Of a DNA stretch of 64,000 nt, positions 1,977 to 63,878 are shown piece after piece; positions within the stretch are counted from its first letter, which is position 1; each line of letters starts with the position of its first letter. A program made the translations under genes and the position numbers. The stretch comes from an uncultured bacterium (GTDB lineage: Bacteria; Krumholzibacteriota; Krumholzibacteriia; LZORAL124-64-63). Below the pieces are notes generated by a model that was not told the origin of the DNA, ran no database searches, and was given only the letters and a program-made list of their open reading frames with translations. The stretch is taken from contig CAVSGO010000006.1 in NCBI GenBank assembly GCA_963727525.1, positions 46,906 through 110,905 of the forward strand, written 5' to 3'.

Positions 1977-2046
1977 CCCTCATTCCATCGTGACCGCTGC
2001 ACATCCCGACGCGAAATCACGCATCTCCCTCAAAGGGAGGTCCAGG

Positions 2047-47256: not shown

Positions 47257-47272
47257 AACGCGGAGGTCGATC

Positions 47273-48577
47273 GTGAGCTTGCTCAACCTGTTCAAGACAC
47301 CCGCGGCTCGCGTCCCCCGCGTGGCGCTCGGGTCCACGGCGATCGTCGACCTGCCCGATCCCGACCACGTGGTGATCCCCCTCGAGTATCCCGGTCAGAT
47401 TCGCTTTCGACCCGCGGTCCAGGCCGGAGACTCCGTGGCGCGCGGGCAGGTGATCGGCCGTTCCGAACTGGGCAACTGCGTGCACGCCTCGATCAGCGGG
47501 CTGATCAAGGAGATCCGGACAATCTGGTCGGCTAGTGGCTACCACGTTCCGGCGGTCGTCATCACCCGCGGCGACGCACCCGCGCTCACACCCACCGAGT
47601 GCCTCGGACAGTGCGGGCTCGATCTGGCCTCGGCGACACGCATCGCATTGCTCAAAGCGGGCGGTGTGATTTCCCCGTGGACCACGCCGGGCCAGGACCA
47701 CCGAGAAGCGGACATCGGCGAGTTCCCGGACATCCAGCACATCGTCGTGAAGGGGCTGAACGAGGAGCCCACGATCGTAAATTTCGAGCTGCTCATGGTG
47801 GAGGGAGCCGGCAGGCTGAAGGACGCGTTGCAACGGCTGTGCGATTTCGTGCCCCGCGCCACGATATGGTTGACGGTGGCGCGCCGCCTCGAGCCGTGGG
47901 CGCGCGAGACCTTCGAGGACCTCGTACGCGTGGTGGGCCTCGCCGAGGAGTATCGCCATCGCATCGAGCGGATGGTGGTGCCGCGCGTGACGGGCGTGGC
48001 CATTGCGAATACCGAGGCGTTCCGGTCGCGCGGTGTCGCCGTGCTCTCCGTCGAACACCTGCTGACCGCGGCCGATGCGCTTGCCGGCAAGCCATTCACG
48101 CACAAGACGGCGACGATAGCCGGAGGCCTTCTGCGCGAGCCGGTGACCGTGCGCACACCGGTCGGAACGACGATCGGGACCTTGCTCGCGAGCCAGGGCA
48201 TGAGCGCCGCCGACTACGGTCGTCTGATCGTCGGCGGCCCGATGCGCGGCATGACGCAGTATACCGACGAGACGCCGTTGAGCAAGTTCCAGCACGGCGT
48301 ATTGGTGATGGCAGCGTCCGAGCTGCCGGCGGAGCTGAACCGTACCTGTGTGAACTGCGGCCGCTGCACGCGCGCCTGTCCCGTGCACCTGCAGGTGCAC
48401 CTCATCGGGCGTTGCGTGGAGTACAACCTGCTTGCCGAAGTGCCTTCGCGCCACCCAGAGGCCTGTCACGAGTGCGGGCTCTGCGCCTTCGTCTGTCCGG
48501 CTCATCGGCCCCTGGTGCAGATGATGAAGATCGCCAAGCGTGCGGGCGTGACCGAGACGAGCGAGGCGGTGGCATGA
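47273..48577 (+). CDS. rnfC: Rnf electron-transport complex subunit C
   Basis: GTG 47273 with GGAGG RBS. RnfC_N-like N-terminus, IVGGPMRG, C-terminal 2x[4Fe-4S] (CVNCGRCTRACP, CHECGLCAFVCP). Not evaluated: no canonical GGxGFP FMN/NADH motif was seen by eye. Confidence 0.8.
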   Translation: MSLLNLFKTPAARVPRVALGSTAIVDLPDPDHVVIPLEYPGQIRFRPAVQAGDSVARGQVIGRSELGNCVHASISGLIKEIRTIWSASGYHVPAVVITRGDAPALTPTECLGQCGLDLASATRIALLKAGGVISPWTTPGQDHREADIGEFPDIQHIVVKGLNEEPTIVNFELLMVEGAGRLKDALQRLCDFVPRATIWLTVARRLEPWARETFEDLVRVVGLAEEYRHRIERMVVPRVTGVAIANTEAFRSRGVAVLSVEHLLTAADALAGKPFTHKTATIAGGLLREPVTVRTPVGTTIGTLLASQGMSAADYGRLIVGGPMRGMTQYTDETPLSKFQHGVLVMAASELPAELNRTCVNCGRCTRACPVHLQVHLIGRCVEYNLLAEVPSRHPEACHECGLCAFVCPAHRPLVQMMKIAKRAGVTETSEAVA

Positions 48578-49608
48578 TCCCGACGATCATCGACACGCGG
48601 CCGGCGACCGACCAGGCGCCCAGGAACGATCGCGACGCTCAGCACGACCACAAGCTGAGCGTAGCCGAGGGGCCGCACTGGCACGACGGCAGTTCGCTCA
48701 CGCGGACACAGATTCTCTGGCTTATGGCGCTGCTTCCCGCGGGCGTGGCGAGCGGCGTCATGCTCGGCGCACCGGCGTTGCGGGTGATGGCGCTGGCGGT
48801 CGCGGCCGCGATCGCCTTCGATGCCCTCGCCAACCGCGTGATGTCCCTGCCGGATGCCACCTCGAACGGCAGCAGCATCACTCTCGGCCTGCTGCTCGCC
48901 TTTCTCCTGCCGGTCGACGCGCCGTGGTGGTTGGTGGTCGTGGGCTGTTTCCTGACCATCGTGATCGGCAAGAAGCTCTTCGGTGGCTGGGGCGGCTATC
49001 CCGTGCATCCGGTGGCGCTGAGCTACGCGATGCTCGTCGTGTCGTGGCCAGCGCGGATGGACGTCACGGCGTCGCTCGTGCACGCGACCTGGCGCGCCGC
49101 ACCGGTGGAACCTCTACGGCTCGTCAAGACCCTCGGCGCGGCCGCCGCCGCGCAATACGACCTCCACGACCTCCTGCTCGGCGTGCAGACCGCTGGCGTG
49201 GGCGACGCGATGGTGCTGTGGCTTCTCGCGGGCGGTGTCTTCCTATTCCTCGTCCGGCAGGTGCCCTGGCAGATTCCGATCGGTGTCGTCGCCGGCGTGG
49301 TGCTCTGCGCCTGGCTGCTCGGCATGGCCGACCCCGGGCGCACGGCCACGCCGGCCTTCCAGCTCCTGGCGGGCGGTACGGTGTTCATGGCGTTCTTTCT
49401 GGCGCCGGAGCACACGACATCGCCGGTCAACCCGTGGCCGATGTTCCTCTACGGGTGGTTGGGCGGCGTGTTGCTCGTGCTGATCCGCGCGTTCTCGAGT
49501 CACATCGACGGCACGGTATTCGCCGTGCTGCTGATGAACGTCGCCTGTCCGCTGCTCGACCGCCTGGGGCCCCGGATCGTCGGCCTGGAGGTGCCACGCG
49601 ATGCGTGA
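48574..49608 (+). CDS. rnfD: Rnf complex subunit D (NqrB-like integral membrane subunit)
   Basis: ATG overlaps the rnfC stop (ATGA). Polytopic membrane profile with the conserved GGWGGYPVHPVAL-type segment and the FMN-attachment-region context (TSPVNPWP). Confidence 0.8.
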   Translation: MIPTIIDTRPATDQAPRNDRDAQHDHKLSVAEGPHWHDGSSLTRTQILWLMALLPAGVASGVMLGAPALRVMALAVAAAIAFDALANRVMSLPDATSNGSSITLGLLLAFLLPVDAPWWLVVVGCFLTIVIGKKLFGGWGGYPVHPVALSYAMLVVSWPARMDVTASLVHATWRAAPVEPLRLVKTLGAAAAAQYDLHDLLLGVQTAGVGDAMVLWLLAGGVFLFLVRQVPWQIPIGVVAGVVLCAWLLGMADPGRTATPAFQLLAGGTVFMAFFLAPEHTTSPVNPWPMFLYGWLGGVLLVLIRAFSSHIDGTVFAVLLMNVACPLLDRLGPRIVGLEVPRDA

Positions 49609-50206
49609 AATCGGTCGCCTGGTGCTGGTGCTCGGGCTCATCGGCGTGGTGAGCGCGTCGTCGCTGGCATACGTGCGCACGACCCTCGCTCCCCGGATCG
49701 AGCGGCAGAACGATTTCTACGTGCGCGGGCCGGCGCTCGAACGGCTGTTCCAGCAGCCGGCACGCACTCTCCTGGGCAACAAGGTGACGCTGGATGCGGC
49801 CGGCACCCGCTACCTGATCTTCTTTCGGCGAGTGGACGGCGACGTCACGGGTCTCGCCGTGGAAGCGCCTGGCCACGGCGGCTACGCCGGCGACGTGGTG
49901 ATGATGGTCGGACTCGATCTTGTCACCGAACGGATGCTCGGCGTGGAGATCGTCTCGCACGGCGAGACCCCGGGCGTGGGTGCCCGGATCGAGAGACCGA
50001 CATTCCGCAAGCAGTGGCGAGGCTTGCCGATGGACGACACGCTGAATCTGCGCACTGCGGGCGGCAACATCGACGCGATCAGCGGTGCCACCTTCTCGTC
50101 GCGTGCCATGATCGACGGCACCAACCAGGTCGATGGCCCTGATGCGGGATCACAGGGCCGACATCCTGGCGCGCATAGCCGGGAACTAGACGGAGAGCGG
50201 TCATGA
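49601..50206 (+). CDS. rnfG: Rnf complex subunit G (FMN-binding); last ~20 codons possibly frameshifted
   Basis: N-terminal TM anchor ([19 protein letters not shown]), FMN-binding-domain motif [14 protein letters not shown]. From about nt 50130 the +1 frame reads ...[18 protein letters not shown] (protein-like, RnfG-like C-terminus), whereas the called frame reads [23 protein letters not shown]. Confidence 0.7.
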
Positions 50207-50815
50207 CGTTCAGGCAGGCACTCACTCACGGGTTCTGGCGAGACCTGCCGCCTTTCCGGCTGGTGCTTGGCCTCTGCCCGGCTCTGGCCGTCACCTCGGC
50301 CGCGCCCAACGGGCTGGGCATGGGGTTGGCGGTGACCTTCGTGCTGATCTTCTCCAACATGTTCATCTCGCTGCTGCGCCGGGTGATCCCCGAGCGAGGT
50401 ACGGATCGCCAGCTACATCGTGGTGATCGCCAGCCTCGTGGTGCTCGTGGAACTGGGCATGAAGGCGTTCTTCTTCTCGCTCTCCCAGCAGTTGGGGATC
50501 TACATCCCGCTCATCGTCGTGAACTGCATCCTGCTGGGGCGCGCCGAGGCGTTCGCCTCGCGCAATCCTGTGCTGCTGTCCGTGGCCGACGGGGTGAGCG
50601 TGGGGCTGGGCTACACGGTCTCGCTCACGTTGATGGCGTCGGTGCGCGAGGTCCTGGGCGCCGGCACGTGGTTCGGCCATACAGTGTTCGGACATGGTTT
50701 CGAGCCCTTCGGTTTCATGGTCAGGGCGCCGGGGGCGTTCCTCTGCCTGGGCCTGCTCCTCGGACTGATGAATGCCTGGAGCCGCAAGCGCGGCGAGTTC
50801 TTCGTGCAGACGTGA
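50203..50815 (+). pseudogene. rnfE: Rnf complex subunit E, interrupted by a +1 frameshift at about nt 50392-50404
   Basis: ATG 50203 (GGAGAG RBS): [64 protein letters not shown], then junk in-frame. The conserved continuation (E)[43 protein letters not shown]... is in the next frame (ORF 50420..50815). Removing one G from gagcgaGgtacgg joins them. Confidence 0.8.
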
Positions 50816-50829
50816 CGGGAGACCGTGCC

Positions 50830-51405
50830 ATGAACCTGATTCTGCTGACCGTGAGTGCGATCTTCGTACACAACATCCTGCTGGCGCAATACCTGGGCAA
50901 CTGCCCGTTCTGCGGCGTATCGAAGAGGATCGAAACCGCGACCGGCATGGCGGTGGCCGTGGTATTCGTGACCACTCTGGCGTCGATCTTCACCTGGGGC
51001 ACGTATCACCAGATTCTCGTGCCATTGCACCTGGAGTACCTGCAAACGCTGGTCTTCATCCTGGTGATCGCGGCCCTCGTGCAGTTCGTGGAGATCTTCC
51101 TCAAGAAGAAGAGCCGTTCCCTCTACAACGCGCTCGGGATCTACCTGCCACTGATCACCACGAACTGCGCCGTGCTGGGGATCGCGTTGCTCAATATCAA
51201 GAACAACTTCGGCTTCGTGCACATGGTGGTGTATTCCGCCGCCAGCTCGGCGGGATTCGGCCTTGCCATCGTGCTGTTCGCCGGGGTGCGCGAGCGCCTC
51301 TTCCTGTCGCCGGTGCCGCGGTCCATGCAGGGGACGGCGATCGCCCTCGTCACGGCCGGCATCATGTCGCTCGCGTTCCTGGGGTTCGCGGGCATGGTCG
51401 AGTAG
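50830..51405 (+). CDS. rnfA: Rnf complex subunit A
   Basis: ATG 50830. [27 protein letters not shown]...[19 protein letters not shown] (RnfA/RnfE family signature). Confidence 0.85.
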
Positions 51406-51420
51406 CCACGGAGACGCACC

Positions 51421-53511
51421 ATGTGGATCCCCGCTGTCGTCCTCGGAGGTATCGCCGCGATCGCGGCGGTGGTGCTGGGCATTGCGGCGCGCGTCTTCCA
51501 CGTTCAGGAAGATCCGCGGATCAAGGCCGTCAATGACCTGCTCGCCGGCGCCAACTGCGGGGGCTGCGGCTACGCGGGCTGCGTCGCCTGTGCGGAGGCG
51601 ATCGTCCGCGGCGAGGTGGAGCCCAACGCATGCGTGGTCGGTCAGGCCGATGTGGCGCGCGCCGTCGCCTCGTTTCTGGGCATGGAACTGGCCGACACGG
51701 AGCCGCAGATCGCGTGCCCCGACTGCCAGGGAGGGTTGCGCGCCTCGCGCAAGTACGCCTACGCCGGCTTTGACGACTGCCGCGCTGCTATGCTCTATTT
51801 CCACGGCCCCGTGTCATGCCAGCACGGATGCCTCGGGCTGGGCACCTGCATCCGCGCCTGCAAGTTCGGGGCGATCACGATGGGGCCCGCCGGGTTGCCC
51901 CTCTTCGATCCTACGCGCTGCGTGGCCTGCGGCGCCTGCGCTCGCGCTTGCCCCAAGGGCATCATCTCGATCATTTCCGAGACGACCAAGATCCTGCACT
52001 GGAATCGCTACACCGAATGCCTGGCCCCGTGCCGGCAGAAGTGTCCGGCGCAGATCAACATCCCCAAGTACATCGAGCACCTGAAGCGCGGCGAGTTCGC
52101 CGAGGCGTTGCTGACGATCAAGGAGAGCAACCCGCTACCGCTCTCCACGGGCCGGGTATGCCCCGAGCCGTGTGCCCTGGCCTGCCGGCGACATATCGGC
52201 GACGAACCGGTAGCGATCAACTATCTCAAGCGCTTCGCGGCCGACTGGGAAATGAGCTCGGGGCGCCGCCTGCACATCCCTGTGCTTCCGGATACCGGCC
52301 GGAAGGTCGCGGTGATCGGAGGCGGGCCAGCCGGACTGTCCGCGGCCTACTTCCTGCGCCGCCTCGGCCACGCCGTCACCATCTATGATCAGATGCCGGC
52401 GCTCGGCGGCATGCTGCGCTACGGCATTCCGGAGTACCGTCTTCCCAAGCGTGTTCTCGACTGGGAGATCGAGGGCATCCTGGCACTCGGCATCCAGGCC
52501 GCGACCGGTGTCGCTCTGGGCAAGGACTTCACCATCGATTTCCTGCGCGCCAATGGTCACGACGCGATCTTCCTCGCCGTGGGTGCATGGCGCGACAATG
52601 GCCTTGGCCTCGAGGACGACGGCGTCTCTGGTATCGTGAGCGGCATCGAGTTGCTGCGGCGCATGCAGACGTCCGCGCCGATCCCCTTACGTGGACACGT
52701 GATCGTGATCGGCGGCGGCAACACCGCCATCGATGCCGCGCGCACCGCCCTGCGAGCCGGCGCGAGTCGGGTGAGCATCGTGTATCGCCGTTCGCGCGAC
52801 GAGATGCCGGCGAATCCGGCCGAGATCGTGGCCGCTGACGAGGAGGGCGTGCGATACCGCTTCCTCAGCGCGCCCAACCGCATCGTATCCGACGCCGGCC
52901 ACGTCACCGGGCTCGAGATTCTGCGCATGGAGCTGGGCGAACCCGATCCCAGCGGTCGGCGAAGGCCCGTGGCGATCGCGGGATCGGAAGAGACGATCCC
53001 GTGCGACCTGATCATCGAGGCCGTGGGCCAGATGCCCGACATCGATTTCCTTGCGGTGCCGGGCATGCCGTCGTTGCCGACAACGCGCTGGAACACGATC
53101 GACGCCAGCGAGGACACGCTACAGACCGATGTGCCCTACATCTTCACCGGTGGTGATTGCTTCACGGGACCCTCGCTCATGGTCAACGCGATCGGTGCTG
53201 GTCGGTATGCGGCACGATCGATCCACTATTACGTGACCGAGGGCAGGATTCCGCCAATCGAGCACCGACAGACCGAACTCATCAGCGACTCGCTCTACGA
53301 GTCCATCGCGGGTGTGGCACCCCGCCCTCGGGTGCACGAGCCCGTCGTGACGCTGCAGGACCGCCTCGGCACTTTCAATGAGGTCGAGGGCACGATCGAC
53401 GAAGAGGATGCCCTCTACGAGGCCGCGCGTTGCCTGCATTGCGGCACCTACTGCTATGACCACGATCTGGAGCAGGAACGTCTGCGGCAGGAGACCGAGC
53501 AGCCGGCGTGA
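51421..53511 (+). CDS. rnfB: RnfB (N-terminal membrane anchor + Fe-S/ferredoxin domains) fused to a GltD/NfnB-like NAD(P)H-dependent FAD oxidoreductase (696 aa)
   Basis: GGAGA RBS. MWIPAVVLGGIAAIAAVVLGIAA, NCGGCGYAGC (RnfB cluster), two 4Fe-4S ferredoxin motifs (CIRACKFGAI / CVACGACARACP); then KVAVIGGGPAGLSAAYFL (FAD GxGxxG) ... VIVIGGGNTAIDAARTA (NAD(P) GxGxxA) ... TGGDC as in glutamate-synthase small-subunit-like flavoproteins. Confidence 0.8.
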   Translation: MWIPAVVLGGIAAIAAVVLGIAARVFHVQEDPRIKAVNDLLAGANCGGCGYAGCVACAEAIVRGEVEPNACVVGQADVARAVASFLGMELADTEPQIACPDCQGGLRASRKYAYAGFDDCRAAMLYFHGPVSCQHGCLGLGTCIRACKFGAITMGPAGLPLFDPTRCVACGACARACPKGIISIISETTKILHWNRYTECLAPCRQKCPAQINIPKYIEHLKRGEFAEALLTIKESNPLPLSTGRVCPEPCALACRRHIGDEPVAINYLKRFAADWEMSSGRRLHIPVLPDTGRKVAVIGGGPAGLSAAYFLRRLGHAVTIYDQMPALGGMLRYGIPEYRLPKRVLDWEIEGILALGIQAATGVALGKDFTIDFLRANGHDAIFLAVGAWRDNGLGLEDDGVSGIVSGIELLRRMQTSAPIPLRGHVIVIGGGNTAIDAARTALRAGASRVSIVYRRSRDEMPANPAEIVAADEEGVRYRFLSAPNRIVSDAGHVTGLEILRMELGEPDPSGRRRPVAIAGSEETIPCDLIIEAVGQMPDIDFLAVPGMPSLPTTRWNTIDASEDTLQTDVPYIFTGGDCFTGPSLMVNAIGAGRYAARSIHYYVTEGRIPPIEHRQTELISDSLYESIAGVAPRPRVHEPVVTLQDRLGTFNEVEGTIDEEDALYEAARCLHCGTYCYDHDLEQERLRQETEQPA

Positions 53512-53949: not shown

Positions 53950-55619
53950 TGGACACGAAGCTGCCCGGAATCGTCGTGACCGGCGCCTCCGGCTTCATCG
54001 GTCGGCACTTCCTGGCCAGTGCGGCCGGACGCTACCGGCTGTTCTGTCTGGCGCGCCGCTCGCGCGAGGAGTCGCAGATTCCCGCCTACGAAAACCTGCA
54101 TTGGTCGCAGGTTGACGTTGCGCGCTGGGACGACCTACGCGAGGTCGTGCATTGCGTGAAGAGCCATGGAGGCGCGTCTGCCGTGCTTCATCTCGCCGGC
54201 TACTACGACTTCCACAACATGGAGCACCCCGAATACGAACGCACGAACGTGAAGGGGACCCGCAACGTTCTCAAACTGGCGCGTCAGCTCGGTGTCGGTC
54301 GCTTCATCTTCGCCAGCTCCCTGGCCGCGTGCCGGTTTCCGCCGGCGGGCCTGGCGATCACCGAGGATTCGCCGGCCGACGCCGGATTCGCCTATGCCCG
54401 GAGCAAGCGCGACGCGGAGGAACTCATCTGCGCGCATACCCAATGGATCCCAGCGTCCATCGTGCGCCTCGCTGCGGTCTATAGCGACTGGTGCGAGTAT
54501 CCACCGCTCTATGTCTTCCTGAAGACGTGGCTATCGGACGGCTGGAACGCCTGCATTCTCGGGGGGCGCGGCGAATCGGCGGTGCCGTACATTCACGTCC
54601 AGGATCTGGTGAAGCTCTTTCATGTGATCCTCGAGCGCAGCGCTACGCTGCCGCGACTGGCCGTGTACAACGCCAGCCCGAATTCAGTGGCCAGCCATCG
54701 GGATCTGTTCCAGATGGCGACGCGTGCATACTACGGCACGGACATCCAGCCGCGATGCGTGCCGCGCGTACTGGCGGTACCGGGCGTGTTCCTGCGCTGG
54801 TGGCTCGGCAAGGCCCGAGGGGCGGCGCCGTTCGAGGCGCCCTGGATGATGCGGTATGTGGACGCGCAGCTCCGGGTCGATGCCAACCGCACCCATGCGG
54901 CGCTCGATTGGCGCCCGGCGCCGCGCATGGACGTCGTACGACGGCTACTGGTGATGATCGAGAATATGAAGACGCACTCCGAAATATGGCATCAGCGCAA
55001 TGAGGCGGCTCTACGGCGCGTGGCATACCGTCCCAATCTCGTCATCGCCCGGATCCTCGACGACCTGCGCGAGGAGTTGATCGCCCGGATCGCCGAACGG
55101 GTGAATTCACCGGATCTGGCCTCGCAATTCGCCGGATATCACGACATGGAGCGCGAGACGCTCCGCTGGTACCTCGCGTTGCTCTACCAGGTGCTCGTGG
55201 CGTCCGTGCGCACGCGCGACCGGCAGCTCATCCGGCACTACGCCCAGGTCATCGCCACGAGACGCCAGCAGGAGGGTTTCTCGTCCGACGAAGTGCGCGA
55301 CTTCCTGATCCTGGTGGGCAAGATCGTGACTGAGACGTTGCGCACGCATGCCGAGCTTGTGGGGCACGAGCAGCCCATTCACGACAATGTCGGTCTGGCG
55401 TTCCAGCTCGCGGTCGACGGCATCGAGGACGTCTACGAAGCTCACGAGGCGCTCAATCCGGAATTGATTGCGCGGGGGCAGGGCTTCGCGGAACTGGGCT
55501 CGAACCGCGACCTCGAGCATATGGTTCACCAGCTCCGCGATCTCTGTGGCGATGTGTTCCCGACGCCCGGTGTCCACGCGAACACGGCCACGACGGATCG
55601 TCCCGTCATCGGACCATGA
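53949..55619 (+). CDS. NAD-dependent epimerase/dehydratase (extended SDR) family protein with a ~250-aa C-terminal helical extension (556 aa)
   Basis: ATG 53949 (MDTKLPGIVVTGASGFIGRHF = GxxGxxG Rossmann). YARSKRDAEE (YxxxK). The upstream part of ORF 53508..55619 is read-through. Confidence 0.8.
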   Translation: MDTKLPGIVVTGASGFIGRHFLASAAGRYRLFCLARRSREESQIPAYENLHWSQVDVARWDDLREVVHCVKSHGGASAVLHLAGYYDFHNMEHPEYERTNVKGTRNVLKLARQLGVGRFIFASSLAACRFPPAGLAITEDSPADAGFAYARSKRDAEELICAHTQWIPASIVRLAAVYSDWCEYPPLYVFLKTWLSDGWNACILGGRGESAVPYIHVQDLVKLFHVILERSATLPRLAVYNASPNSVASHRDLFQMATRAYYGTDIQPRCVPRVLAVPGVFLRWWLGKARGAAPFEAPWMMRYVDAQLRVDANRTHAALDWRPAPRMDVVRRLLVMIENMKTHSEIWHQRNEAALRRVAYRPNLVIARILDDLREELIARIAERVNSPDLASQFAGYHDMERETLRWYLALLYQVLVASVRTRDRQLIRHYAQVIATRRQQEGFSSDEVRDFLILVGKIVTETLRTHAELVGHEQPIHDNVGLAFQLAVDGIEDVYEAHEALNPELIARGQGFAELGSNRDLEHMVHQLRDLCGDVFPTPGVHANTATTDRPVIGP

Positions 55620-57078
55620 CCATCTTGCGCGTGAGCACGTGGCCCGCCTGCTCGAGGCGGTACACGTAGACCCCGGCCGGCATCGCGGCGCCTTGGTCGT
55701 CGGTGCCGGCCCACATCGTCACGTGGTGGCCGCCGTCGCGTTCGGCGTCGACGAGGGTCCGTATCCGTCGGCCGCGCTGGTCGAAGATGGCAAGTGTGAC
55801 GTGATCTCCGCCGCGCCGCACGTCGTACCCGATCGTGGTCTGGGGATTGAAGGGGTTGGGAATGTTCTGCTCGAGGGCGATGGCGTTGGGCACGCTGTCG
55901 ATGTTGACCGTGGTGCCCGTGATGCGGTAGACCGTATCGCCGCCGACGTCGACCACGTACAGTTCGCCGAGCCCATCCTGGCCGATCGACGCGAGCCCGC
56001 CGAAGCCGCCCGGCGGCGTGATCTGGTCGGTCCAGTCCGTGACCGGTCCGAATCCGCTCGCTGCCGACCACGCGCCACTCCAGATCTGACCGCTGCAGTA
56101 ATCGGCGAAAAAATACTGGCCGGCAAGCGCCGGTAAGGCGTCGCCGCGATAGACGTAGCCGCCTGAGATGGAGCATCGAAACGGGGTGCCGCCGTGCGAG
56201 TACTCGTGGACCGGCAACACCAGGGTGCCGTCGTTGCAATCACTCGGCGGATCGTAGCAACTCGTGCCTTCCATCAGGTGCCAACCGTAGTTCTCACCAC
56301 CGCTCGAGCTGGCGGGTTGGACGTCGATTTCCTCCAGCTCACCCTGGCCCACGTCGGCGATGTAGAGATCTCCGGTCTGTCGATCGAAGGAGAAGCACCA
56401 GGGGTTGCGCAGGCCGTAGGCCCAGATCTCGTCACGCCCGGGCTGGCCCACCAGGGGATTCGAGGGCGGATTGGTGTAGCCGGGTGCCATGGCCACGTTG
56501 ATGCGCAGGATCTTGCCCAGCAACAGGTCGACATTCTGCGCCCTGTTCTGCGGGTCGCCGGCTGAGCCACCGTCGCCCAGGCCGATGTAGAGCATGCCGT
56601 CCGGCCCGAACTGCAGGCACCCGCCGTTGTGGTTGCTGTACGGCTGTGTCACCGAGATCAGGTGCTCGGCGCTCGTGGGGTCGGCGACGTCGGGATCGGC
56701 GCTGACATGGTAGCGTACGATCTGCGTGTCGCCGTTGACGTCGGTGTAGTCGACGTAGAAGCGACCCGAGATGTCATAGTCGGGCGCGAAGGCGAGCCCC
56801 AGGAGTCCACGTTCGCTCCCCGTGCCGACCAGATCGGAGATGTCGAGGAAGACATCGAGTCGGTTGCCGCCCTGGTCGTAGACCTCGATACGTCCACCCT
56901 GCCGCACGACGAAGAGGCGAGGATCGCCATCCGGCGCGACGAGCCGCACGGGCTGAGCGATGTTCGTGATCACCGGTTCAACCGCAAGGACGGCCGCAGC
57001 CAACTGCGGGCGCATGGTTATCGCAACGAGGATGATAACGAGCGCGGCCAGTACGGGCCGCGAGAATGTGCGTAGCAT
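55606..57078 (-). CDS. Secreted PQQ-dependent sugar dehydrogenase (soluble glucose/sorbosone dehydrogenase family beta-propeller) with a C-terminal FlgD-Ig-like/T9SS-like sorting domain (490 aa)
   Basis: GGAGG RBS. Signal peptide. GLLGLAFAPDY, HNGGCLQFGPDGMLYIGLGDGG, YGLRNPWCFSFD, ENYGWHLMEG (sGDH-family motifs). C-terminus QNIPNPFNPQTTIGYDVRRGGDHVTLAIFDQRGRRIRTL...GVYVYRLEQAGHVLTRKMVMVR. Confidence 0.85.
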   Translation of the reverse strand: MLRTFSRPVLAALVIILVAITMRPQLAAAVLAVEPVITNIAQPVRLVAPDGDPRLFVVRQGGRIEVYDQGGNRLDVFLDISDLVGTGSERGLLGLAFAPDYDISGRFYVDYTDVNGDTQIVRYHVSADPDVADPTSAEHLISVTQPYSNHNGGCLQFGPDGMLYIGLGDGGSAGDPQNRAQNVDLLLGKILRINVAMAPGYTNPPSNPLVGQPGRDEIWAYGLRNPWCFSFDRQTGDLYIADVGQGELEEIDVQPASSSGGENYGWHLMEGTSCYDPPSDCNDGTLVLPVHEYSHGGTPFRCSISGGYVYRGDALPALAGQYFFADYCSGQIWSGAWSAASGFGPVTDWTDQITPPGGFGGLASIGQDGLGELYVVDVGGDTVYRITGTTVNIDSVPNAIALEQNIPNPFNPQTTIGYDVRRGGDHVTLAIFDQRGRRIRTLVDAERDGGHHVTMWAGTDDQGAAMPAGVYVYRLEQAGHVLTRKMVMVR

Positions 57079-57247: not shown

Positions 57248-57423
57248 ATCTCTCCCCGTCCTGGTCGGCACAATTCGAGGAGCGAGTAGAGCGCGAAACC
57301 TCTACCTGTATTACGAAACGGAAAAAGACGACTTTGGTCATGATAACTGATTGCAATATCGCTCGTTACAGCAATATTTTCTCAGTAATTTCTTCATTTT
57401 CTTCTTTCTCCGAGCGATACTAT

Positions 57424-57488: not shown

Positions 57489-58457
57489 ATGCGCACGAAC
57501 GGCGGATCACCAACCTTCCACGTGATGGCCTTGGCCACGTGCACGGTGCTCTGCCTGGGCCTGATCGCCCTCCTTCCCGGAGTGGCAACGGCCCAGGACG
57601 CGATGCGAACGACCGAGACCTGCCTCGGATGCCACGACGGTCAGGCCGCGAACCTGGTGGGGAGTCCTCACCAGATCACGGCACTGACGGACGCGGCCGG
57701 GGCACGCATTGCTTGCACCGACTGTCACAAGGGCCCTGCCAGCCACTGGGAGGACGACCCCGAATCGAATCCAATGGGCAATCCGGCCACGGTCTCGGCC
57801 GATGCGGCGGCGAAGCTTTGCGCCGGTTGCCACGTCAACCCTCACCAGCAATCGATGATGACCGGCGATCCGCACAACACCGCCGGCGTGTCCTGCACGA
57901 GCTGCCACCAGGTGCATGGTGGAGCGAACCGCGCCGATCTGCTGAAGCAGCCGGAGCCCGGTCTCTGCTACAGCTGCCATGGCGCCGTGCAGGGGCAATT
58001 CGCGCAGCCGTCGCGTCATCCCGTCGCCGATGGGGTCATGACGTGCAGCGACTGCCACCTCAAGTCTGCGGACGCGCGCGGTGCGCTCACATGGTCGGGC
58101 ACCAACGCGATGTGCGTGAGCTGCCACGACCAGTTCCAGGGACCGTTTCCCTTCGAGCACCAGGCAACCATGGACTTCTCCACGGAAGAGGGCGGATGTC
58201 TGAGCTGTCACGACCCGCACGGATCGGCCCTGCCGCGTCTGCTCAAGCAGCCGTACGAGTCGCCTCACTACAACCTCTGTACCCAGTGCCACGCGGTTCC
58301 CAAGCACAACTTCAATCAGGAGCACGGCACCGCCTGGGCGGGCGTGGCCTGCACAGAGTGTCACGTCGACGTTCACGGATCCTACGAGAACCGGCTGTTC
58401 CTGACGCCGGCTCTGCGGGCTCAGGGCTGTTCCGCCGTGGGCTGCCACCATTTCTAG
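57489..58457 (+). CDS. Periplasmic decahaem c-type cytochrome (MtrA/OmaB-like size and haem density) (322 aa)
   Basis: ATG 57489 with AGGAGA RBS. Signal peptide MALATCTVLCLGLIALLPGVATAQDA. Ten CxxCH (CLGCH, CTDCH, CAGCH, CTSCH, CYSCH, CSDCH, CVSCH, CLSCH, CTQCH, CTECH) plus a terminal CSAVGCH (Cx4CH). Confidence 0.85.
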   Translation: MRTNGGSPTFHVMALATCTVLCLGLIALLPGVATAQDAMRTTETCLGCHDGQAANLVGSPHQITALTDAAGARIACTDCHKGPASHWEDDPESNPMGNPATVSADAAAKLCAGCHVNPHQQSMMTGDPHNTAGVSCTSCHQVHGGANRADLLKQPEPGLCYSCHGAVQGQFAQPSRHPVADGVMTCSDCHLKSADARGALTWSGTNAMCVSCHDQFQGPFPFEHQATMDFSTEEGGCLSCHDPHGSALPRLLKQPYESPHYNLCTQCHAVPKHNFNQEHGTAWAGVACTECHVDVHGSYENRLFLTPALRAQGCSAVGCHHF

Positions 58458-58469
58458 AAGGGGCGACCA

Positions 58470-60038
58470 ATGCGACGATCGACTGCGACGACAACCTGTC
58501 TGGCTCTGTTGCTGGGCCTGTTGTACGCGGCGCCCGTCCACTGCGCGACGCTGAATGGAACGCTCACGCTCGGAAACATCAGTCTGGACGAGGATGCCGG
58601 CGATCTGTCCGCGATGCAGGAGACGTACAACATCCACGACGGATTCTCCGTCTCGCAGATCCTGCTCAACGGCCAGCTCAGCGACCGGAACATGTTCCAG
58701 CTCGACCTGCGTGAGATCAACCTGGACAGCCGCAAGGGGCTCTTCACCTACCGGCTGGCCGACGTCGGCGACGTGACGGTGCGCTATGACCAGCATCGGC
58801 AGCTCTTCGATGCCGATGGTGCCGTCAGTTCCGAGCGCAAGGATCTGCGCATCGGAGCCAGGGCGGCCATGACACCGTGGCTGCGCGTGTCGGGCAACTA
58901 CAATCACCAGACGCGCGCGGGCGACCGACTGGGCTATCCAGCCGGCAACATCGGCTGGCTGGGCAACGGCTACGACTACACGCTGCAGACCGGCCGCGTG
59001 GAGGCCGAGGTGCATGACCACGTCCGCGGTCTGGCCGTGGGCTACGAGATGTCGGACTATGCCGACACTGAGCACAACGGTACCGACCGCCAGGGCCATG
59101 TGGTCTCGGTGCGTGGTCACATGCCCTGCCTGTTCTTGCCCGATCACGTGTCGCACTACGTGCGCGCGGCGTTCGGCCAGCAGGAACTGGTGGGCAGCGG
59201 CCTGCAGTACGACATGGCGTCATTCCAGTACGTGGGCGTGGTCAAGCCGGTGGATCAGTTCAAGTTCAAGTACGACCTGTACCTGAGCCGCGTGGACGAC
59301 GACGCCACCGATCTGAAGACGGACGACATCCGCAACAACTTCGACCTGACCTACTTCTTCAAGTACGGCCAGGTCTTCGGTGGTTATAGCTACGTGACTG
59401 CCGACGACGACCGCACCCTCACCAGCTCCAATGTCTGGCGTGTGGGAGCGGCGGGCGGCTATCACCATGCGATCCGCGCCAAGGTGAGCTACGCCACGTC
59501 GGACAAGACCGACACCGAGCAGCTCACCTTGCTCAAGGACGTGGAGCAGGACCGTTTCCGGGCGAGCCTGCAGTCGCAACCGGTTGAGAATCTGACGGTC
59601 GGCGCGTCCTATGCCGACCGCACGCGGGAGTTCCCTGTCATCAACGTGAAGGCCACCGGCAAGCAGGTGAGCACCTTCGCGCGGGTGACGGTGCCCGGCT
59701 GGGGCGGCTTCGGTGCCGACTACACCTATAGCCGTGACGAGTATGACGACCTGGTGGCGGGATACGACGCCGAGAGCAACGTCGTGACCGGCCGTGTCGA
59801 CGTGGATTACATCAAGAATCTGCGTCTGTCCGCCGCCGTGTCCTATCTGGATATCGGAAAGGACCTCGATATCGAGAAGTCGATCCTCTCCTTCGAGGGG
59901 CGTTACAACCTGCTCGACGACTATCACATCGAGGTCAAGTACAACGTCTACAACTACGACGACTACATCCTGCTGGACCGCTACTACACGGCCAACGTCG
60001 TGTGGGTGAACATCGGTTACGATTTCTCGGTGGAGTAG
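58470..60038 (+). CDS. Predicted outer-membrane beta-barrel protein (porin-like, MtrB/OmbB-type role inferred from context) (522 aa)
   Basis: AAGGGG RBS. Signal peptide MRRSTATTTCLALLLGLLYAAPVHCA. Long series of amphipathic Y/D/T-rich beta-strand-like segments (VSVRGHM, KFKYDLYLSRV, DLTYFFKYGQVFGGYSYVT, KVSYATSD, HIEVKYNVYNY, ANVVWVNIGYDFSVE). Confidence 0.65.
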   Translation: MRRSTATTTCLALLLGLLYAAPVHCATLNGTLTLGNISLDEDAGDLSAMQETYNIHDGFSVSQILLNGQLSDRNMFQLDLREINLDSRKGLFTYRLADVGDVTVRYDQHRQLFDADGAVSSERKDLRIGARAAMTPWLRVSGNYNHQTRAGDRLGYPAGNIGWLGNGYDYTLQTGRVEAEVHDHVRGLAVGYEMSDYADTEHNGTDRQGHVVSVRGHMPCLFLPDHVSHYVRAAFGQQELVGSGLQYDMASFQYVGVVKPVDQFKFKYDLYLSRVDDDATDLKTDDIRNNFDLTYFFKYGQVFGGYSYVTADDDRTLTSSNVWRVGAAGGYHHAIRAKVSYATSDKTDTEQLTLLKDVEQDRFRASLQSQPVENLTVGASYADRTREFPVINVKATGKQVSTFARVTVPGWGGFGADYTYSRDEYDDLVAGYDAESNVVTGRVDVDYIKNLRLSAAVSYLDIGKDLDIEKSILSFEGRYNLLDDYHIEVKYNVYNYDDYILLDRYYTANVVWVNIGYDFSVE

Positions 60039-60075: not shown

Positions 60076-61101
60076 ATGTCCGCTCTCAGGAATCTCAGTC
60101 TAATCACGATCGTGCTACTGCTCCTGGTCGGTGTGACCGCATGCGACCGCACGATCACCCGTGTCGAGCAGGTGGCGGATCAGCCCAGCAGCTGCTTCAA
60201 CTGCCATGGCGACGACAACACCGCGCTCATCTCGGCCCAGCTGGCATGGGAGAACTCGCGCCACGCGAGCGGCCTCAATACCAACCGGGCCACGGCCGAC
60301 TGCTCCGGTTGCCATACCGGCGACGGCTTCATCGCGCGCGCCGAAGGGAACATCCCCGAGGCCTACGACAACCCGTCGGTCATCCATTGCTTCACCTGCC
60401 ACGCGCCGCACAGCAACGGCGACTTCGGTCTGCGCTGGACGGAAATGGCCACGCTCGAGGACGGCACCACGTTCGATCTCCACGCTGGCAACCTCTGCGT
60501 GGCTTGCCACCATGCGCGCGACGACGTCAACACCTTCGTGCGCACGGGCGGCGACGTGACGATCAGCAGCACCCACTGGGGTCCGCACCATGGCCCGCAG
60601 GGCGACATGCTGCTGGGCTCCAACGGCTACGAGTACGACAGCTACGGCTACGAGCAGACGCCATACCACCGCACCCTCACCCAGGACGGCTGCGTGGACT
60701 GCCACTTCAAGACCACGCGCAACTTCGTGGTGGGCGGCCACTCGTTCAACATGGAGGCCGATCTCGAGGGCTCCACGGTGCGCAACACCGCGGCCTGCGC
60801 GGCGTGCCACACCGGCCTCAGCGATTTCAACTACAACTCCGTGCAGGACAGCGTGGCCACCATGCTGACGACGCTGGAGACTTCGCTCGAGGATGCGGGC
60901 CTGTTCACCAGTGGCCACCCGGTCGCACAGACCGTGGCCGAGGCCGACGCGGGCGCCATGTGGAACTACCTGCTGGTCGAGGAAGACCGCAGCATGGGCG
61001 TTCACAACTCGAAGTACATCATCGGACTTCTTGACTCTTCCATTCAATATTTGGCGGACAAGAAGTCGGTTGCACCGCTGGCTCTGGTTGACCAAGATTA
61101 G
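60076..61101 (+). CDS. Lipoprotein hexahaem c-type cytochrome (341 aa)
   Basis: AAGGAGGA RBS. Lipoprotein signal LLLLVGVTAC. Six CxxCH (CFNCH, CSGCH, CFTCH, CVACH, CVDCH, CAACH). Confidence 0.85.
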   Translation: MSALRNLSLITIVLLLLVGVTACDRTITRVEQVADQPSSCFNCHGDDNTALISAQLAWENSRHASGLNTNRATADCSGCHTGDGFIARAEGNIPEAYDNPSVIHCFTCHAPHSNGDFGLRWTEMATLEDGTTFDLHAGNLCVACHHARDDVNTFVRTGGDVTISSTHWGPHHGPQGDMLLGSNGYEYDSYGYEQTPYHRTLTQDGCVDCHFKTTRNFVVGGHSFNMEADLEGSTVRNTAACAACHTGLSDFNYNSVQDSVATMLTTLETSLEDAGLFTSGHPVAQTVAEADAGAMWNYLLVEEDRSMGVHNSKYIIGLLDSSIQYLADKKSVAPLALVDQD

Positions 61102-61145: not shown

Positions 61146-61180
61146 ACACGGGCGGGGACGGTCTCCGCCCGTGTTTTCTG
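61146..61180 (+). terminator. Rho-independent terminator: ACACGGGCGG-ggacggtct-CCGCCCGTGT followed by TTTTCTG
   Basis: 10-bp GC-rich perfect stem and T-run, 45 nt after the hexahaem cytochrome stop and 13 nt before the next gene's RBS. Confidence 0.7.
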
Positions 61181-61192
61181 AGAGGGATCACC

Positions 61193-63814
61193 GTGAACTT
61201 GAGAGCTTCACTGCGTGCGCTGGCCGTGTTTATTCTCGCCGCGACACTGTCCAGCATCACCTCTCTCTCCTCGGCGTACGCCGACAACGACACGTGCTTC
61301 ATGTGCCACGACGATGCGTCGCTCAAGAGCGAGTCGGGCAAGTCCGTCGGCGTTCTGGCGAAGTTGTTCGATGCGAGTGTTCACGCCGGCCTGGAGTGCA
61401 CCGACTGCCACACGCAGGACGCGAACTTCGATGACGTGCCGCATTTCTCGCGTTACCAGCCGGTCAATTGCGCGATGTGCCACGAGGACGCGGCGCACAG
61501 CTTCGGATTGAATTTTCACGCCAAGGCGGCTACCCAGGGCAACACCAATGCTCCGAACTGCAAGGACTGCCACGGCGTCGACGGCAATCCCCACGCGATG
61601 CGCGCCCTTACCGCGCGCACGGCGGAGTCGGCGTGCCGACGGTGCCACGCTTCGGAAGCCAAGATCTATGACACCGGTGTGCATGCGATCGCCGACAAGG
61701 GTGGTCGCGAGAGGGCCGGATGCGTGACCTGCCACCAGTCGCACGGCCCGGGTCTGCCGCCCTCGTCCGGCGCCGTGAACGGCCTCTGCGAGAAGTGCCA
61801 CAAGGGCGCCATGGAGGACGTCCAGCGCGGTGGCCACGTGGCCATTGGCGAGGGACTCAACCAGACGCTGAACTGCGCTTCGTGCCACGACGTGCATGGC
61901 ACGCACAAGCCGCACCTGTCCGCGCGCGTGGCCCAGGCGTGCGTCACCTGCCACCAGAAGGAACGCGATGCCTTCATAGGGTCGGTACACGAGACGCTCA
62001 TCGCCGGCGGCACGATGCATTGCCTTTCCTGTCACAGCACGCACAAGGACGAGGCGGCGGCGCGGCAGTACGACGCGGGCTGCGGCAGTTGCCACGGCGA
62101 CGTGGAAAAGATCTACCGCGGTAGCGTGCACCGTTTCGGCCGCTTGCGCGGCGATGACGGTGCCGCGACGTGTGCCAACTGTCACCACGGACACCATATC
62201 CTCCCGGCGACCGATCCGGCGTCGCCGACGAATCGCTTGAACATTCCCAGCACCTGCGGCGAATGCCACACCGATGAGAGCATCGTCACCAAGGACTTCG
62301 TGCGTCTGCCGATCACGCTGCCAAACTACATGAACTCGGTGCACGGCAAGGGGCTCGTGGCGGGCAAACCCACCGCGACCTGCACCGACTGCCATGGCAC
62401 GCACGACCTGCAGACCGCCCAGGATCCGAATTCGAAGATCAATCGGTTCCACATCGCGCAGACGTGCAGCAAGTGCCACGCGGATATCGCGGAGAAATAC
62501 GAGAACTCGATCCACGGCAAGGCTGTGCAGGTGGGTATCGAGGATTCGCCGACCTGCATCGATTGCCACGACGAGCACCTGATCAAGGACGTCAAGGACC
62601 CCACCGCGCGGCAGAATCCAGAGAACATCGCGCGCGAGCTGTGCGGTGACTGCCACAACAACTCGGACATGGTGTCGAAGTACGGCATCGCCGCGGGCGT
62701 CGTGAGCAGCTATCTCGACAGCTACCACGGGTGGGCGATCAGCCGCGGGGGAACCCTCGTGGCCACCTGCGTCGATTGCCACACGACCCACGAGATCCGG
62801 GCCCCGCAGGATCCCGAGTCGTCGGTCTTCGTGGACAACGTGACAAAAACGTGCGGCAAGTGCCACGCGAATGCCAACGAGACGTTTTCCCGCTCTTACA
62901 CGCACGCGGGCGCGCTAGCGGCGCGCGGGCCGCACGGCTGGGCGAAGCTGATCTACCTCATCCTGATCGCCGTGGTGCTTGGCGGCATGGCGCTGCACAA
63001 CTTCGTGATCGCGCGCTTCGAGATCATCAAGCACCGCGTGCGCCGGCGCCGGGAGGCGTACGTCGTGCGCTGGCAGCGCGTGGAGCGCGTGCAGCACCTG
63101 ATCCTGCTCACGTCGTTCTTCGGCCTGGCCATCACCGGCTTCGCGCTGCGCATGCACGACGCCTGGTGGGTCAAGGTGATCGGCCTCGGTGGCTCCGAGT
63201 CGGTGCGCGCCAACCTGCACCGCGCGCTGGCCGTGATCCTCACCGGAGCAGCGTTCTTCCACCTGTGGTGGATCATCGCCACCCGGCGCGGTCGTTACGC
63301 CGTCAAGGAGATGGCGCCCGGCGCGCACGACATCGTGCACTTCATCAAGAACATGGGCTTCCACCTGGGCTTCACGTCCGAGCGACCGAAGTTCCGACGG
63401 TTCGATTACACGCAGAAGGCGGAGTACTGGGCGGTCGTCTGGGGCACCATGGTCATGGCTCTCACCGGGCTCGTGCTGTGGTTCCCCGTGCTGGTGACCA
63501 CCTGGACGCCCGCCTGGGTGGTGCGCGTGGCCGAGGTGGTGCACTACTACGAGGCCATCCTCGCGGTCTCGGCCATCATCATCTGGCACTTCTTCTACGT
63601 CATCTTCATGCCATCGGAGTACCCGGTGAGCACCGTGTGGCTCGACGGCCGCATGCCGGAGCACGACTGGAAGGAATTCCACGCGGCCGAGCACGAGACC
63701 GACGGCGACGCAGTGGTGCAGCAGCCCGGGCCCAGCACCGATCTGCCCGGCATCGCGGTGTTCGTGCCCAAGGCGTTGCGCAGCAAGCGTCCTCCCGACC
63801 CGAAACACGGGTGA
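61193..63814 (+). CDS. Fusion of a 19-haem periplasmic c-type cytochrome domain with a C-terminal membrane dihaem cytochrome b (FdnI/HydC-like); CbcL-like inner-membrane quinol:cytochrome oxidoreductase candidate (873 aa)
   Basis: GTG 61193 with GAGAGGGA RBS. Signal peptide. 19 CxxCH motifs (CFMCH ... CGKCH). Then four TM helices with conserved Arg/His (VVRWQRVERVQHLILLTSFFGLAITGFALRMHD..., HRALAVILTGAAFFHLWW..., EYWAVVWGTMVMALTGLVLWF..., HYYEAILAVSAIIIWHFFYVIF), as in cytochrome b subunits of formate dehydrogenase / NiFe hydrogenase. Confidence 0.85.
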   Translation: MNLRASLRALAVFILAATLSSITSLSSAYADNDTCFMCHDDASLKSESGKSVGVLAKLFDASVHAGLECTDCHTQDANFDDVPHFSRYQPVNCAMCHEDAAHSFGLNFHAKAATQGNTNAPNCKDCHGVDGNPHAMRALTARTAESACRRCHASEAKIYDTGVHAIADKGGRERAGCVTCHQSHGPGLPPSSGAVNGLCEKCHKGAMEDVQRGGHVAIGEGLNQTLNCASCHDVHGTHKPHLSARVAQACVTCHQKERDAFIGSVHETLIAGGTMHCLSCHSTHKDEAAARQYDAGCGSCHGDVEKIYRGSVHRFGRLRGDDGAATCANCHHGHHILPATDPASPTNRLNIPSTCGECHTDESIVTKDFVRLPITLPNYMNSVHGKGLVAGKPTATCTDCHGTHDLQTAQDPNSKINRFHIAQTCSKCHADIAEKYENSIHGKAVQVGIEDSPTCIDCHDEHLIKDVKDPTARQNPENIARELCGDCHNNSDMVSKYGIAAGVVSSYLDSYHGWAISRGGTLVATCVDCHTTHEIRAPQDPESSVFVDNVTKTCGKCHANANETFSRSYTHAGALAARGPHGWAKLIYLILIAVVLGGMALHNFVIARFEIIKHRVRRRREAYVVRWQRVERVQHLILLTSFFGLAITGFALRMHDAWWVKVIGLGGSESVRANLHRALAVILTGAAFFHLWWIIATRRGRYAVKEMAPGAHDIVHFIKNMGFHLGFTSERPKFRRFDYTQKAEYWAVVWGTMVMALTGLVLWFPVLVTTWTPAWVVRVAEVVHYYEAILAVSAIIIWHFFYVIFMPSEYPVSTVWLDGRMPEHDWKEFHAAEHETDGDAVVQQPGPSTDLPGIAVFVPKALRSKRPPDPKHG

Positions 63815-63842
63815 ACGCCCGCTGATTAGTCGCATTCCTCAA

Positions 63843-63878
63843 TGAGGCCCCGGAGATCCTTACCGGGGCCTCTTGATA
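63843..63878 (+). terminator. Rho-independent terminator: GAGGCCCCGG-agatccttac-CCGGGGCCTC followed by TTGATATTCC
   Basis: 10-bp perfect GC stem 29 nt after the stop of the 873-aa cytochrome gene, with a T-rich tail. Confidence 0.6.

Follow-up and report, generated by a model that had tools for sequence, protein, structure and literature searches.

A 19-haem cytochrome c fused to an FdnI-like cytochrome b, encoded next to an MtrAB-like conduit in a Krumholzibacteriota genome

How do electrons cross the periplasm? This is a less settled step of extracellular respiration, for which both diffusing small cytochromes and fixed wires are considered. The question is raised by a stretch of 64,000 nucleotides (nt) from an uncultured bacterium of the Krumholzibacteriota (GenBank assembly GCA_963727525.1, contig CAVSGO010000006.1, positions 46,906 to 110,905 of the forward strand), hereafter the window, in which one four-gene cluster of this poorly studied lineage encodes both an MtrAB-type outer-membrane conduit and a haem chain of the inner membrane that is very long. 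The chain is part of the product of the last gene of the cluster, in which a multihaem cytochrome c domain (c-domain) is fused to a membrane-embedded cytochrome b domain (b-domain). Public collections already contain an identical protein (P0001). From its sequence and from structural models, we consider it probable that this fusion is a CbcL/MtrH/MtoC-type quinol:cytochrome c oxidoreductase of the inner membrane, which would send electrons outward to an extracellular acceptor. The coordinates of the features discussed below are collected in Table 1.

What is the fusion made of? A sequence-only reading of the window had described a signal peptide, 19 c-type haem motifs and a C-terminal region of four transmembrane (TM) helices with the conserved histidines of dihaem cytochromes b, likened the whole to Geobacter CbcL, and expected the haem domain to be periplasmic. 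Most of this description held. A motif scan of the 873 amino acids (aa) gave exactly 19 CxxCH motifs, spanning residues 35-554, and no CxxCK, CxxxCH or CxxxxCH; all 38 cysteines lie inside the CxxCH motifs, and the c-domain has one haem per 28.7 residues. The N-terminus is of the Sec type, with R4 and R8, a hydrophobic core, and then SSAYA before and DND after the cleavage-type site. Five membrane helices follow the c-domain in both the hydropathy profile and the AlphaFold model. Four of them are those expected (residues 633-654, 677-697, 745-772 and 785-808), and the first, a linker helix that we call TM0, had been missed. The domain search found Pfam Ni_hydr_CYTB (PF01292) in the b-domain, within the last ~250 aa, at 52 bits for a cut-off of 30; an NCBIfam scan of the fusion protein gave nothing above cut-off. 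Lysines and arginines number 9 and 10 in loops 610-632 and 698-744, and 2 and 1 in loops 655-676 and 773-784. Because these charges obey the positive-inside rule, they place, together with the helices, the c-domain in the periplasm and the C-terminus in the cytoplasm.

The next question is whether the haems form a wire or an active site. In an alignment of 79 full-length homologues (45-79% identity), the 19 CxxCH motifs and 19 further histidines of the c-domain are invariant, a pattern far beyond chance; the only conserved methionine in the domain is M207. Because there are 19 invariant non-motif histidines for 19 motifs and a single conserved methionine, the counts fit 19 bis-His electron-transfer haems, the ligation that the sequence-only reading had proposed to check. 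Every c-haem has a conserved candidate second histidine, so that the domain resembles a chain for electron transfer alone, with no catalytic role. Its best solved match is the decahaem wire MtrA (6r2q_A), aligned to residues 146-305 at E 2e-11.

The b-domain is best understood by comparison with FdnI, the gamma subunit (cytochrome b556) of Escherichia coli formate dehydrogenase-N (Fdn-N; PDB 1KQF/1KQG, chain C). The alignment profile matches FdnI (1KQF chain C) at E 4e-12 over residues 3-214 of 217, and the FdnI haem ligands H18, H57, H155 and H169 fall exactly on H635, H676, H784 and H799, respectively, which are invariant in the 79 homologues; all four histidines of a dihaem cytochrome b are thus present. 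FdnI was also the only significant structural match in the fold search. The two proteins have in common the four-helix fold, the four ligand histidines and the cytoplasmic tail, and TM0 would correspond in its role to the one TM helix that, in the known Fdn-N structure, anchors the periplasmic subunit FdnH. Unlike FdnI, the window protein has no FdnG/FdnH partners, the fused cytochrome c domain replacing the Fe-S subunit, and no molybdopterin or Fe-S subunit genes were found at 53.5-64 kb or within 10 kb downstream. The label "formate dehydrogenase gamma subunit" given by some sources was rejected as a domain-level mislabel (TIGR01583, 48.5 bits vs a cut-off of 115.85).

A further difference from FdnI lies in two extra invariant histidines, H602 (63005-63007) in TM0, within the motif G-G-M-x-x-H-N, and H690 (63269-63271) in TM2, 14 residues below H676. 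Neither has a counterpart in FdnI, and their depth in the membrane is that of the cytoplasmic b-haem. They are kept in relatives with 13 haems, in 19-haem proteins with six TM helices described below, and in Desulfuromonas CbcL, so that the set of six membrane histidines is common to the 5-TM clade of the window protein, to the 6-TM 19-haem proteins (loci L044, L064, L077 and L018) and to CbcL (L087). H602 and H690 could be part of the lining of the quinone site, or they could be ligands of a third b-haem. If the latter is true, CbcL-type proteins would be trihaem rather than dihaem, since both histidines are conserved as far as CbcL; the literature calls CbcL dihaem on homology grounds only.

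How close is the fusion to CbcL itself? CbcL of Geobacter sulfurreducens (GSU0274) is needed to reduce low-potential acceptors, has nine bis-His haems (low-spin by nuclear magnetic resonance) and reduces PpcA (PMC9129911; bioRxiv 10.1101/2022.08.31.506072). We searched for orthologues with garbled optical-character-recognition fragments of an alignment in the supplement of PMC9129911, used as a seed only. The search recovered true C-terminal fragments of the CbcL clade, and one of these led to our comparator, a 613-aa composite from Desulfuromonas thiophila joined from frameshift-split open reading frames (ORFs) of 434 and 179 aa. Its nine CxxCH motifs, at 32, 57, 81, 104, 128, 156, 184, 227 and 255, occupy the positions tabulated for the D. 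acetoxidans CbcL homologue (Zhong & Shi, PMC6295460). The D. thiophila gene (L087, 2697-4540) is split by an apparent frameshift at ~4000, possibly an assembly error or a pseudogene. BLASTP aligned the fusion with the composite at 192 bits and E 2e-56, with 28% identity over 562 columns (published identities within the family are 28.6%-100%; PMC6295460), and the match is colinear through both domains, from residues 297-828 of the window protein to 32-554 of CbcL, which bears out the CbcL-like architecture first proposed. In the pairwise alignment, haems 11-19 and TM0-TM4 correspond to the whole of CbcL minus its last helix; in a multiple alignment with the 6-TM 19-haem proteins the CbcL motifs pair instead with haems 9-15, 18 and 19, so that the pairing differs by alignment.

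Both proteins have a signal peptide, a multihaem c-domain, about 28 residues per haem, a linker TM helix and an FdnI/HydC-like b-domain with all six membrane histidines kept; the c-haems are all bis-His in CbcL, and by sequence they are candidates for this ligation in the window protein. They differ in several ways. CbcL has 9 haems in 619 aa, whereas the window protein has 19, of which 10 are extra at the N-terminus, in 873 aa; CbcL ends in a sixth TM helix (589-611 in GSU0274), where the window protein has a hydrophilic tail; the loop between TM0 and TM1 is ~20 residues shorter in the window protein, and the His-His spacing in TM2 is 14 instead of 20. The genetic context differs as well, since the window gene adjoins an MtrAB-like conduit and Geobacter cbcL does not. 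An exhaustive profile search with the membrane domain gave 2689 representative clusters at E <= 1e-3, and the best 150 of these, which have the b-domain type of the window protein and carry 0-19 haems (most often 11), all lack a sixth TM helix. Because this helix is lacking in the window protein and in these 150 representatives, the protein is placed, at the sequence level, in the CbcL/MtrH/MtoC superfamily as a member of a separate 5-TM clade, and not as a CbcL orthologue.

Where would the electrons go? Three genes of the same strand directly precede the fusion gene, and the successive intergenic gaps measure 12, 37 and 91 nt. The first encodes an MtrA-like decahaem cytochrome; its listed ORF starts at 57351, and we prefer the methionine at 57489 because it precedes the signal peptide. 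The protein matches the DmsE/MtrA decahaem family TIGR03508 over profile positions 2-257 of 258 at 170 bits, below the subfamily cut-off of 192, and MtrA (6r2q_A) at E 5e-24 over residues 62-324 of 333. The product of the second gene has no Pfam, NCBIfam or PDB sequence match of its own; 18 of the 60 members of its family match PF11854 (MtrB_PioB). Its AlphaFold2 (AF2) model, with a pLDDT of 89 and a pTM of 0.79, consists of a signal helix and 26 strands, and its top Foldseek match is MtrB (6r2q_B; E 4e-16, TMq 0.75), the next being at 1e-8. The third gene encodes a lipoprotein presumed to lie at the cell surface, with a partial match to Pfam MtrC-MtrF_II-IV_dom (39.6 bits vs a cut-off of 30) and a weak one (E 3e-5) to 6i5b_A, which we take to be the surface cytochrome OcwA of Thermincola. 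With 6 haems in 341 aa it departs from the decahaem surface lipoproteins MtrC and OmcA and is, by its sequence, a different surface cytochrome. We infer that the decahaem cytochrome is inserted in the MtrB-like barrel, and that the locus encodes a complete pathway from quinol to the cell surface. Compared with MtrCAB of Shewanella (PDB 6R2Q), the window has an MtrA homologue and a 26-strand MtrB-like barrel nearby, but the barrel is of 522 aa vs about 650 aa, the hexahaem lipoprotein stands in place of the decahaem MtrC, and the names of the closest homologues of the fusion point to a Krumholzibacteria-like host of the FCB group. The presence of an inner-membrane CbcL-type gene in the cluster is also found in the MtoAB/MtoC clusters of Fe(II)-oxidising Betaproteobacteria and with mtrH. 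The same four genes occur in locus L014 in the order fusion, MtrA, barrel, lipoprotein, with a 19-haem fusion 63% identical to that of the window.

Is the fusion gene expressed with the conduit? The gene is bracketed by hairpins, because a second one lies directly 3' of its stop codon (Table 1). The stem of the upstream hairpin consists of 13 perfect base pairs (61146-61174, -24.8 kcal/mol), and the GTG start codon begins 18 nt past this stem and 12 nt past the U-tract. A scan for terminators and promoters detected no promoter, and the hairpin at 61146-61174 was not among its terminator calls. The sequence-only reading had seen here a strong terminator and a gene with its own ribosome-binding site; the strong hairpin is real and GAGAGGGA precedes the GTG, but a separate transcription unit need not follow. 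Because there is no room for a promoter between the hairpin and the ribosome-binding site, the simpler reading would be that the hairpin attenuates transcription within an operon or stabilises the mRNA; it is no proof of a separate unit.

These elements suggest the following mechanism. Sequence and models show that the Sec signal directs the N-terminal 19-haem domain into the periplasm and that the chain recrosses the membrane through TM0. The next four helices form an FdnI-type bundle, which retains the four histidines that in FdnI bind two b-haems, one near each membrane face. (Mena)quinol would be oxidised at the b-domain, and the two b-haems would feed the electrons to the 19 c-haems, which would hand them on to the MtrA-like decahaem cytochrome of the same cluster, held in the MtrB-like barrel; the surface hexahaem lipoprotein would be next. 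The final acceptor would be extracellular, e.g., humics, a partner cell or Fe(III)/Mn(IV) minerals. A quinone site close to the cytoplasmic b-haem, where FdnI has it, would mean that this step generates no proton-motive force; a non-energy-conserving step has been argued for CbcL (bioRxiv 10.1101/2022.08.31.506072). A bolder version, built on analogy, which we regard as doubtful albeit conceivable, is that the 19-haem domain is a rigid chain of ~15 nm that crosses the periplasm and docks on the MtrA-like decahaem, so that the path would be hard-wired with no diffusible cytochrome. The length estimate is scaled from MtrA, whose 10 haems reportedly span about 8 nm.

A number of observations weigh against the proposed quinol oxidase that delivers electrons outward to the conduit. 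First, a strong hairpin could uncouple the expression of the lipoprotein gene and the fusion gene. Second, the invariant H602 and H690 are unaccounted for by the two-haem FdnI scheme, which needs four histidines. Third, an MtrB-like barrel is present in only 2 of the 87 loci that we fetched, and most relatives have no adjacent MtrB-like porin. The tie to an outer-membrane conduit is for this reason specific to the locus and not family-wide. Fourth, Fe(III) reducers and Fe(II) oxidisers alike have homologues, with no sequence feature that separates the two groups (PMC6295460).

This last point opens the possibility of a reverse flow as proposed for MtoC, in which a partner cell, a cathode-like mineral or extracellular Fe(II) would supply electrons that enter through the MtrAB-like conduit and pass by the 19-haem chain to the quinone pool. 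Such a role would be in line with the clustering of mtoC with mtoAB and with FdnI, which is itself a quinone reductase (Fdn-N, PDB 1KQF). However, reduction with electrons derived from Fe(II) is uphill for low-potential menaquinone, the Rnf complex and the many secreted hydrolases encoded nearby fit an organotroph, and neither Cyc2 nor RuBisCO nor any other marker of lithotrophy was seen within the 64-kb window. The sequence does not fix the direction; we rate outward flow as more likely and regard inward flow as unlikely.

Less probable still, and in our view improbable, is that the fusion serves the periplasm as a general redox hub, comparable to CymA, NrfH, Qrc or Hmc, linking the quinone pool to soluble reductases or dehydrogenases, with the conduit genes incidental to it. 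The rarity of MtrB-like porins among homologous loci would be expected of such a hub, as would homologues that stand alone (L005) or adjoin NrfA-like (Cytochrom_C552) cytochromes (L004 and L006), and the upstream hairpin could mark a separate transcription unit. Yet the four genes follow one another closely on one strand, the same four recur, permuted, in L014, and the 10 kb downstream contain no gene for a periplasmic reductase. That the fusion is a catalyst, a multihaem reductase of the nitrite, hydroxylamine or tetrathionate type with a cytochrome b as its anchor, was rejected and has a negligible probability, since CxxCK is absent, no haem motif is unpaired and each has a candidate distal histidine, the best c-domain match is an electron-transfer protein, and no NrfA, HAO or OTR family, including the nitrite and hydroxylamine reductases that the sequence-only reading had named as its alternative, passes threshold.

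An inner-membrane quinol oxidase remains our preferred reading, and the neighbours of its relatives are informative about possible partners. Another cytochrome gene (at least 3 haems) lies within 8 kb of the fusion in 56 of 72 loci and within 600 nt in 38 of the 72. In the otherwise syntenic region of a 71%-identical orthologue, there is an NrfA-like cytochrome upstream and a small cytochrome of 185 aa downstream. Cytochromes of ~180-200 aa are encoded directly downstream of the fusion elsewhere (L002, 12656-13237; L004, 10633-11190; L008, 10627-11202; L032, 10493-11026); where their haems were counted, in L008, L032 and other 16-haem loci, they are tetrahaem, and they match MtrC/MtrF II-IV and Cytochrome_C554. 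This small cytochrome may be the usual periplasmic partner. The window locus has no such gene, and a FlgD_ig protein is encoded there instead.

How unusual is a chain of 19 haems? Among the 120 best database matches, 81 have exactly 19 CxxCH motifs and 22 have 13. The 19-haem matches are of 828-893 aa, save one of 742 aa and one partial sequence of 635 aa, and their named sources are Candidatus Krumholzibacteria, Calditrichaeota, Brocadiae, Deltaproteobacteria and Latescibacterota. The 13-haem class (P0080-P0114) corresponds to the 19-haem protein with haems 4-9 cleanly absent (residues ~100-270 of the window protein). A scan with one genome per species found relatives in the genomes of at least 582 species. 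Of its 80 best loci, 40 have 11 haems (Acidobacteriota, Gemmatimonadota, Planctomycetota and Verrucomicrobiota), 3 have 13 (Acidobacteriaceae and Ca. Sulfotelmatobacter), 17 have 16 (Ignavibacteria, including the cultured Melioribacter sp. Ez-97), 5 have 17-18 and 8 have 19, the last two classes in various taxa. Judging from the sequences, the number of haems in the family changes by discrete modules: 11, 13, 16 and 19.

Long chains were also known before. A survey of CbcL/MtrH/MtoC homologues (Zhong & Shi, Front Microbiol 2018) covered 15 phyla and proteins of 416-1034 aa with 3-23 CX2CH motifs, most of them with six TM helices, and reported that their genes often cluster with mtrAB/mtoAB or other cytochrome genes (PMC6295460). 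Its Table S2 has many 19-haem members of 907-951 aa, among them Caldithrix abyssi Cabys_319 (920 aa), Marinifilaceae BAX79136 (932 aa), Ignavibacteria OGV21847, Gemmatimonadetes MAF27600 and Syntrophaceae OIP92139, and one 23-haem member of 1034 aa (PMC6295460). The haem wire is therefore not "unusually long", as had been claimed: 19 is the commonest count in close relatives, and homologues with 19 and 23 haems were tabulated in 2018. Within this catalogued class, the window protein is rather ordinary. No entry of Table S2 has its layout of 5 TM helices in 853-873 aa (PMC6295460), and in our literature searches we found 19-haem bc fusions described only by Zhong & Shi 2018, and no paper that describes the 5-TM clade.

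The catalogued 6-TM type with 19 haems was found beside relatives of the window protein in loci L044, L064, L077, L018, L022 and L036. The membrane domains of these proteins are 39-44% identical to that of Desulfuromonas CbcL, over the full length including the sixth helix, and 32-35% identical to that of the window protein. The window protein aligns with them end to end, with ~30% identity, E down to 1e-120 and 19/19 motifs in register; it has the same six membrane histidines and the same TM2 spacing of 14, but they carry the sixth TM helix and are 50-80 aa longer. Because the motifs align end to end, the 19-haem layout is common to the catalogued 6-TM CbcL clade and to its 5-TM sister clade. 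In the same six loci, a 5-TM fusion with 11, 16 or 19 haems adjoins the 6-TM CbcL-type protein with 19 (L018, 7968-12805; L044, 600-5924; L064, 2198-7484; L077, 3869-10391; L022, 7842-12965; L036, 2270-7189). In L006 (8001-13098) the neighbour of the fusion is an 846-aa multihaem gene, a candidate second fusion; such side-by-side pairs occur in many genomes. Because the two forms are often beside each other in one locus, they are distinct paralogues. By analogy, this pairing suggests two specialised quinol oxidases, recalling the potential-specific CbcL, ImcH and CbcBA of Geobacter.

Table 1. Features of the window around the fusion gene and in the Rnf-type operon (positions in the 64,000-nt window).
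Feature	Position	Strand	Description
Membrane-anchored octahaem cytochrome c	46603-47256	+	8 CxxCH, N-terminal TM helix; precedes the Rnf genes
RnfC	47273-48577	+	
RnfD	about 48.6-49.6 kb	+	
RnfG	49601-50206	+	
Fused RnfE/RnfA	50203-51405	+	two Rnf-Nqr stretches
RnfB-like Fe-S protein fused to GltD-like NAD(P)H flavoprotein	51421-53511	+	
mtrA-like periplasmic decahaem cytochrome	57489-58457	+	10 CxxCH
mtrB-like 26-strand outer-membrane beta-barrel	58470-60038	+	522 aa; AF2 model
Hexahaem lipoprotein, presumed cell-surface cytochrome	60076-61101	+	6 CxxCH, lipobox LVGVTAC, 341 aa
GC-rich hairpin between lipoprotein gene and fusion gene	61146-61180	+	13 bp stem, 3-nt loop, then UUUUCU
Shine-Dalgarno-like GAGAGGGA	61181-61188	+	4 nt before GTG; read from sequence
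Fusion gene	61193-63814	+	GTG start, 873 aa
Signal peptide, residues 1-30	61193-61282	+	hydropathy; model helix 4-26; AYA/D cleavage-type site read from sequence
Periplasmic 19-haem c-domain, residues 31-575	61283-62917	+	19 invariant CxxCH and 19 more invariant His
TM0 linker helix, residues 585-609	62945-63019	+	carries invariant G-G-M-x-x-H602-N
FdnI-like four-helix cytochrome b domain, residues 621-808	63053-63616	+	H635, H676, H690, H784, H799
Cytoplasmic C-terminal tail, residues 809-873	63617-63811	+	hydrophilic (hydropathy); no sixth TM helix; aligns with FdnI C-terminus
Second GC-rich hairpin	63839-63876	+	10-bp core stem, 9-nt loop, 25 nt after fusion-gene stop

Other genes of the window complete the picture. 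The Rnf-type operon (46603-53511, + strand) lies 4 kb from the conduit cluster, and this cytochrome-linked Rnf and the cluster may be part of the same respiratory chain. Many large secreted proteins end in a FlgD_ig-type domain, encoded at 1990-5118 (+), 24116-27886 (-) and 55606-57078 (-), and also in L001 (4034-6688, 7474-8415 and 10537-12564); among them are a subtilase, a GSDH-type dehydrogenase, a beta-helix protein and one with cadherin/Ig repeats. This C-terminus is probably a lineage-specific sorting or anchoring tag. A 972-aa Ser/Thr protein kinase fused to a long TPR array (5464-8382, +) is unrelated to the fusion gene.

Our analysis does not overturn current understanding, since the class, its 19-haem forms and their clustering with mtrAB are already published. 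What it reveals is that the 5-TM sister clade of CbcL is very widespread, falls into discrete classes of haem number and apparently lacks a dedicated description. The locus suggests that iron, manganese or electrode respiration takes place in this lineage of Krumholzibacteriota and, because chain and conduit share one cluster, it is a compact candidate for a test of fixed wires across the periplasm. If the hard-wired version is true, the classes with 11, 13, 16 and 19 haems would be length adaptations, and electrons that leave the quinol pool would reach the cell surface by one continuous path, through 2 b-haems and then 19, 10 and 6 c-haems.

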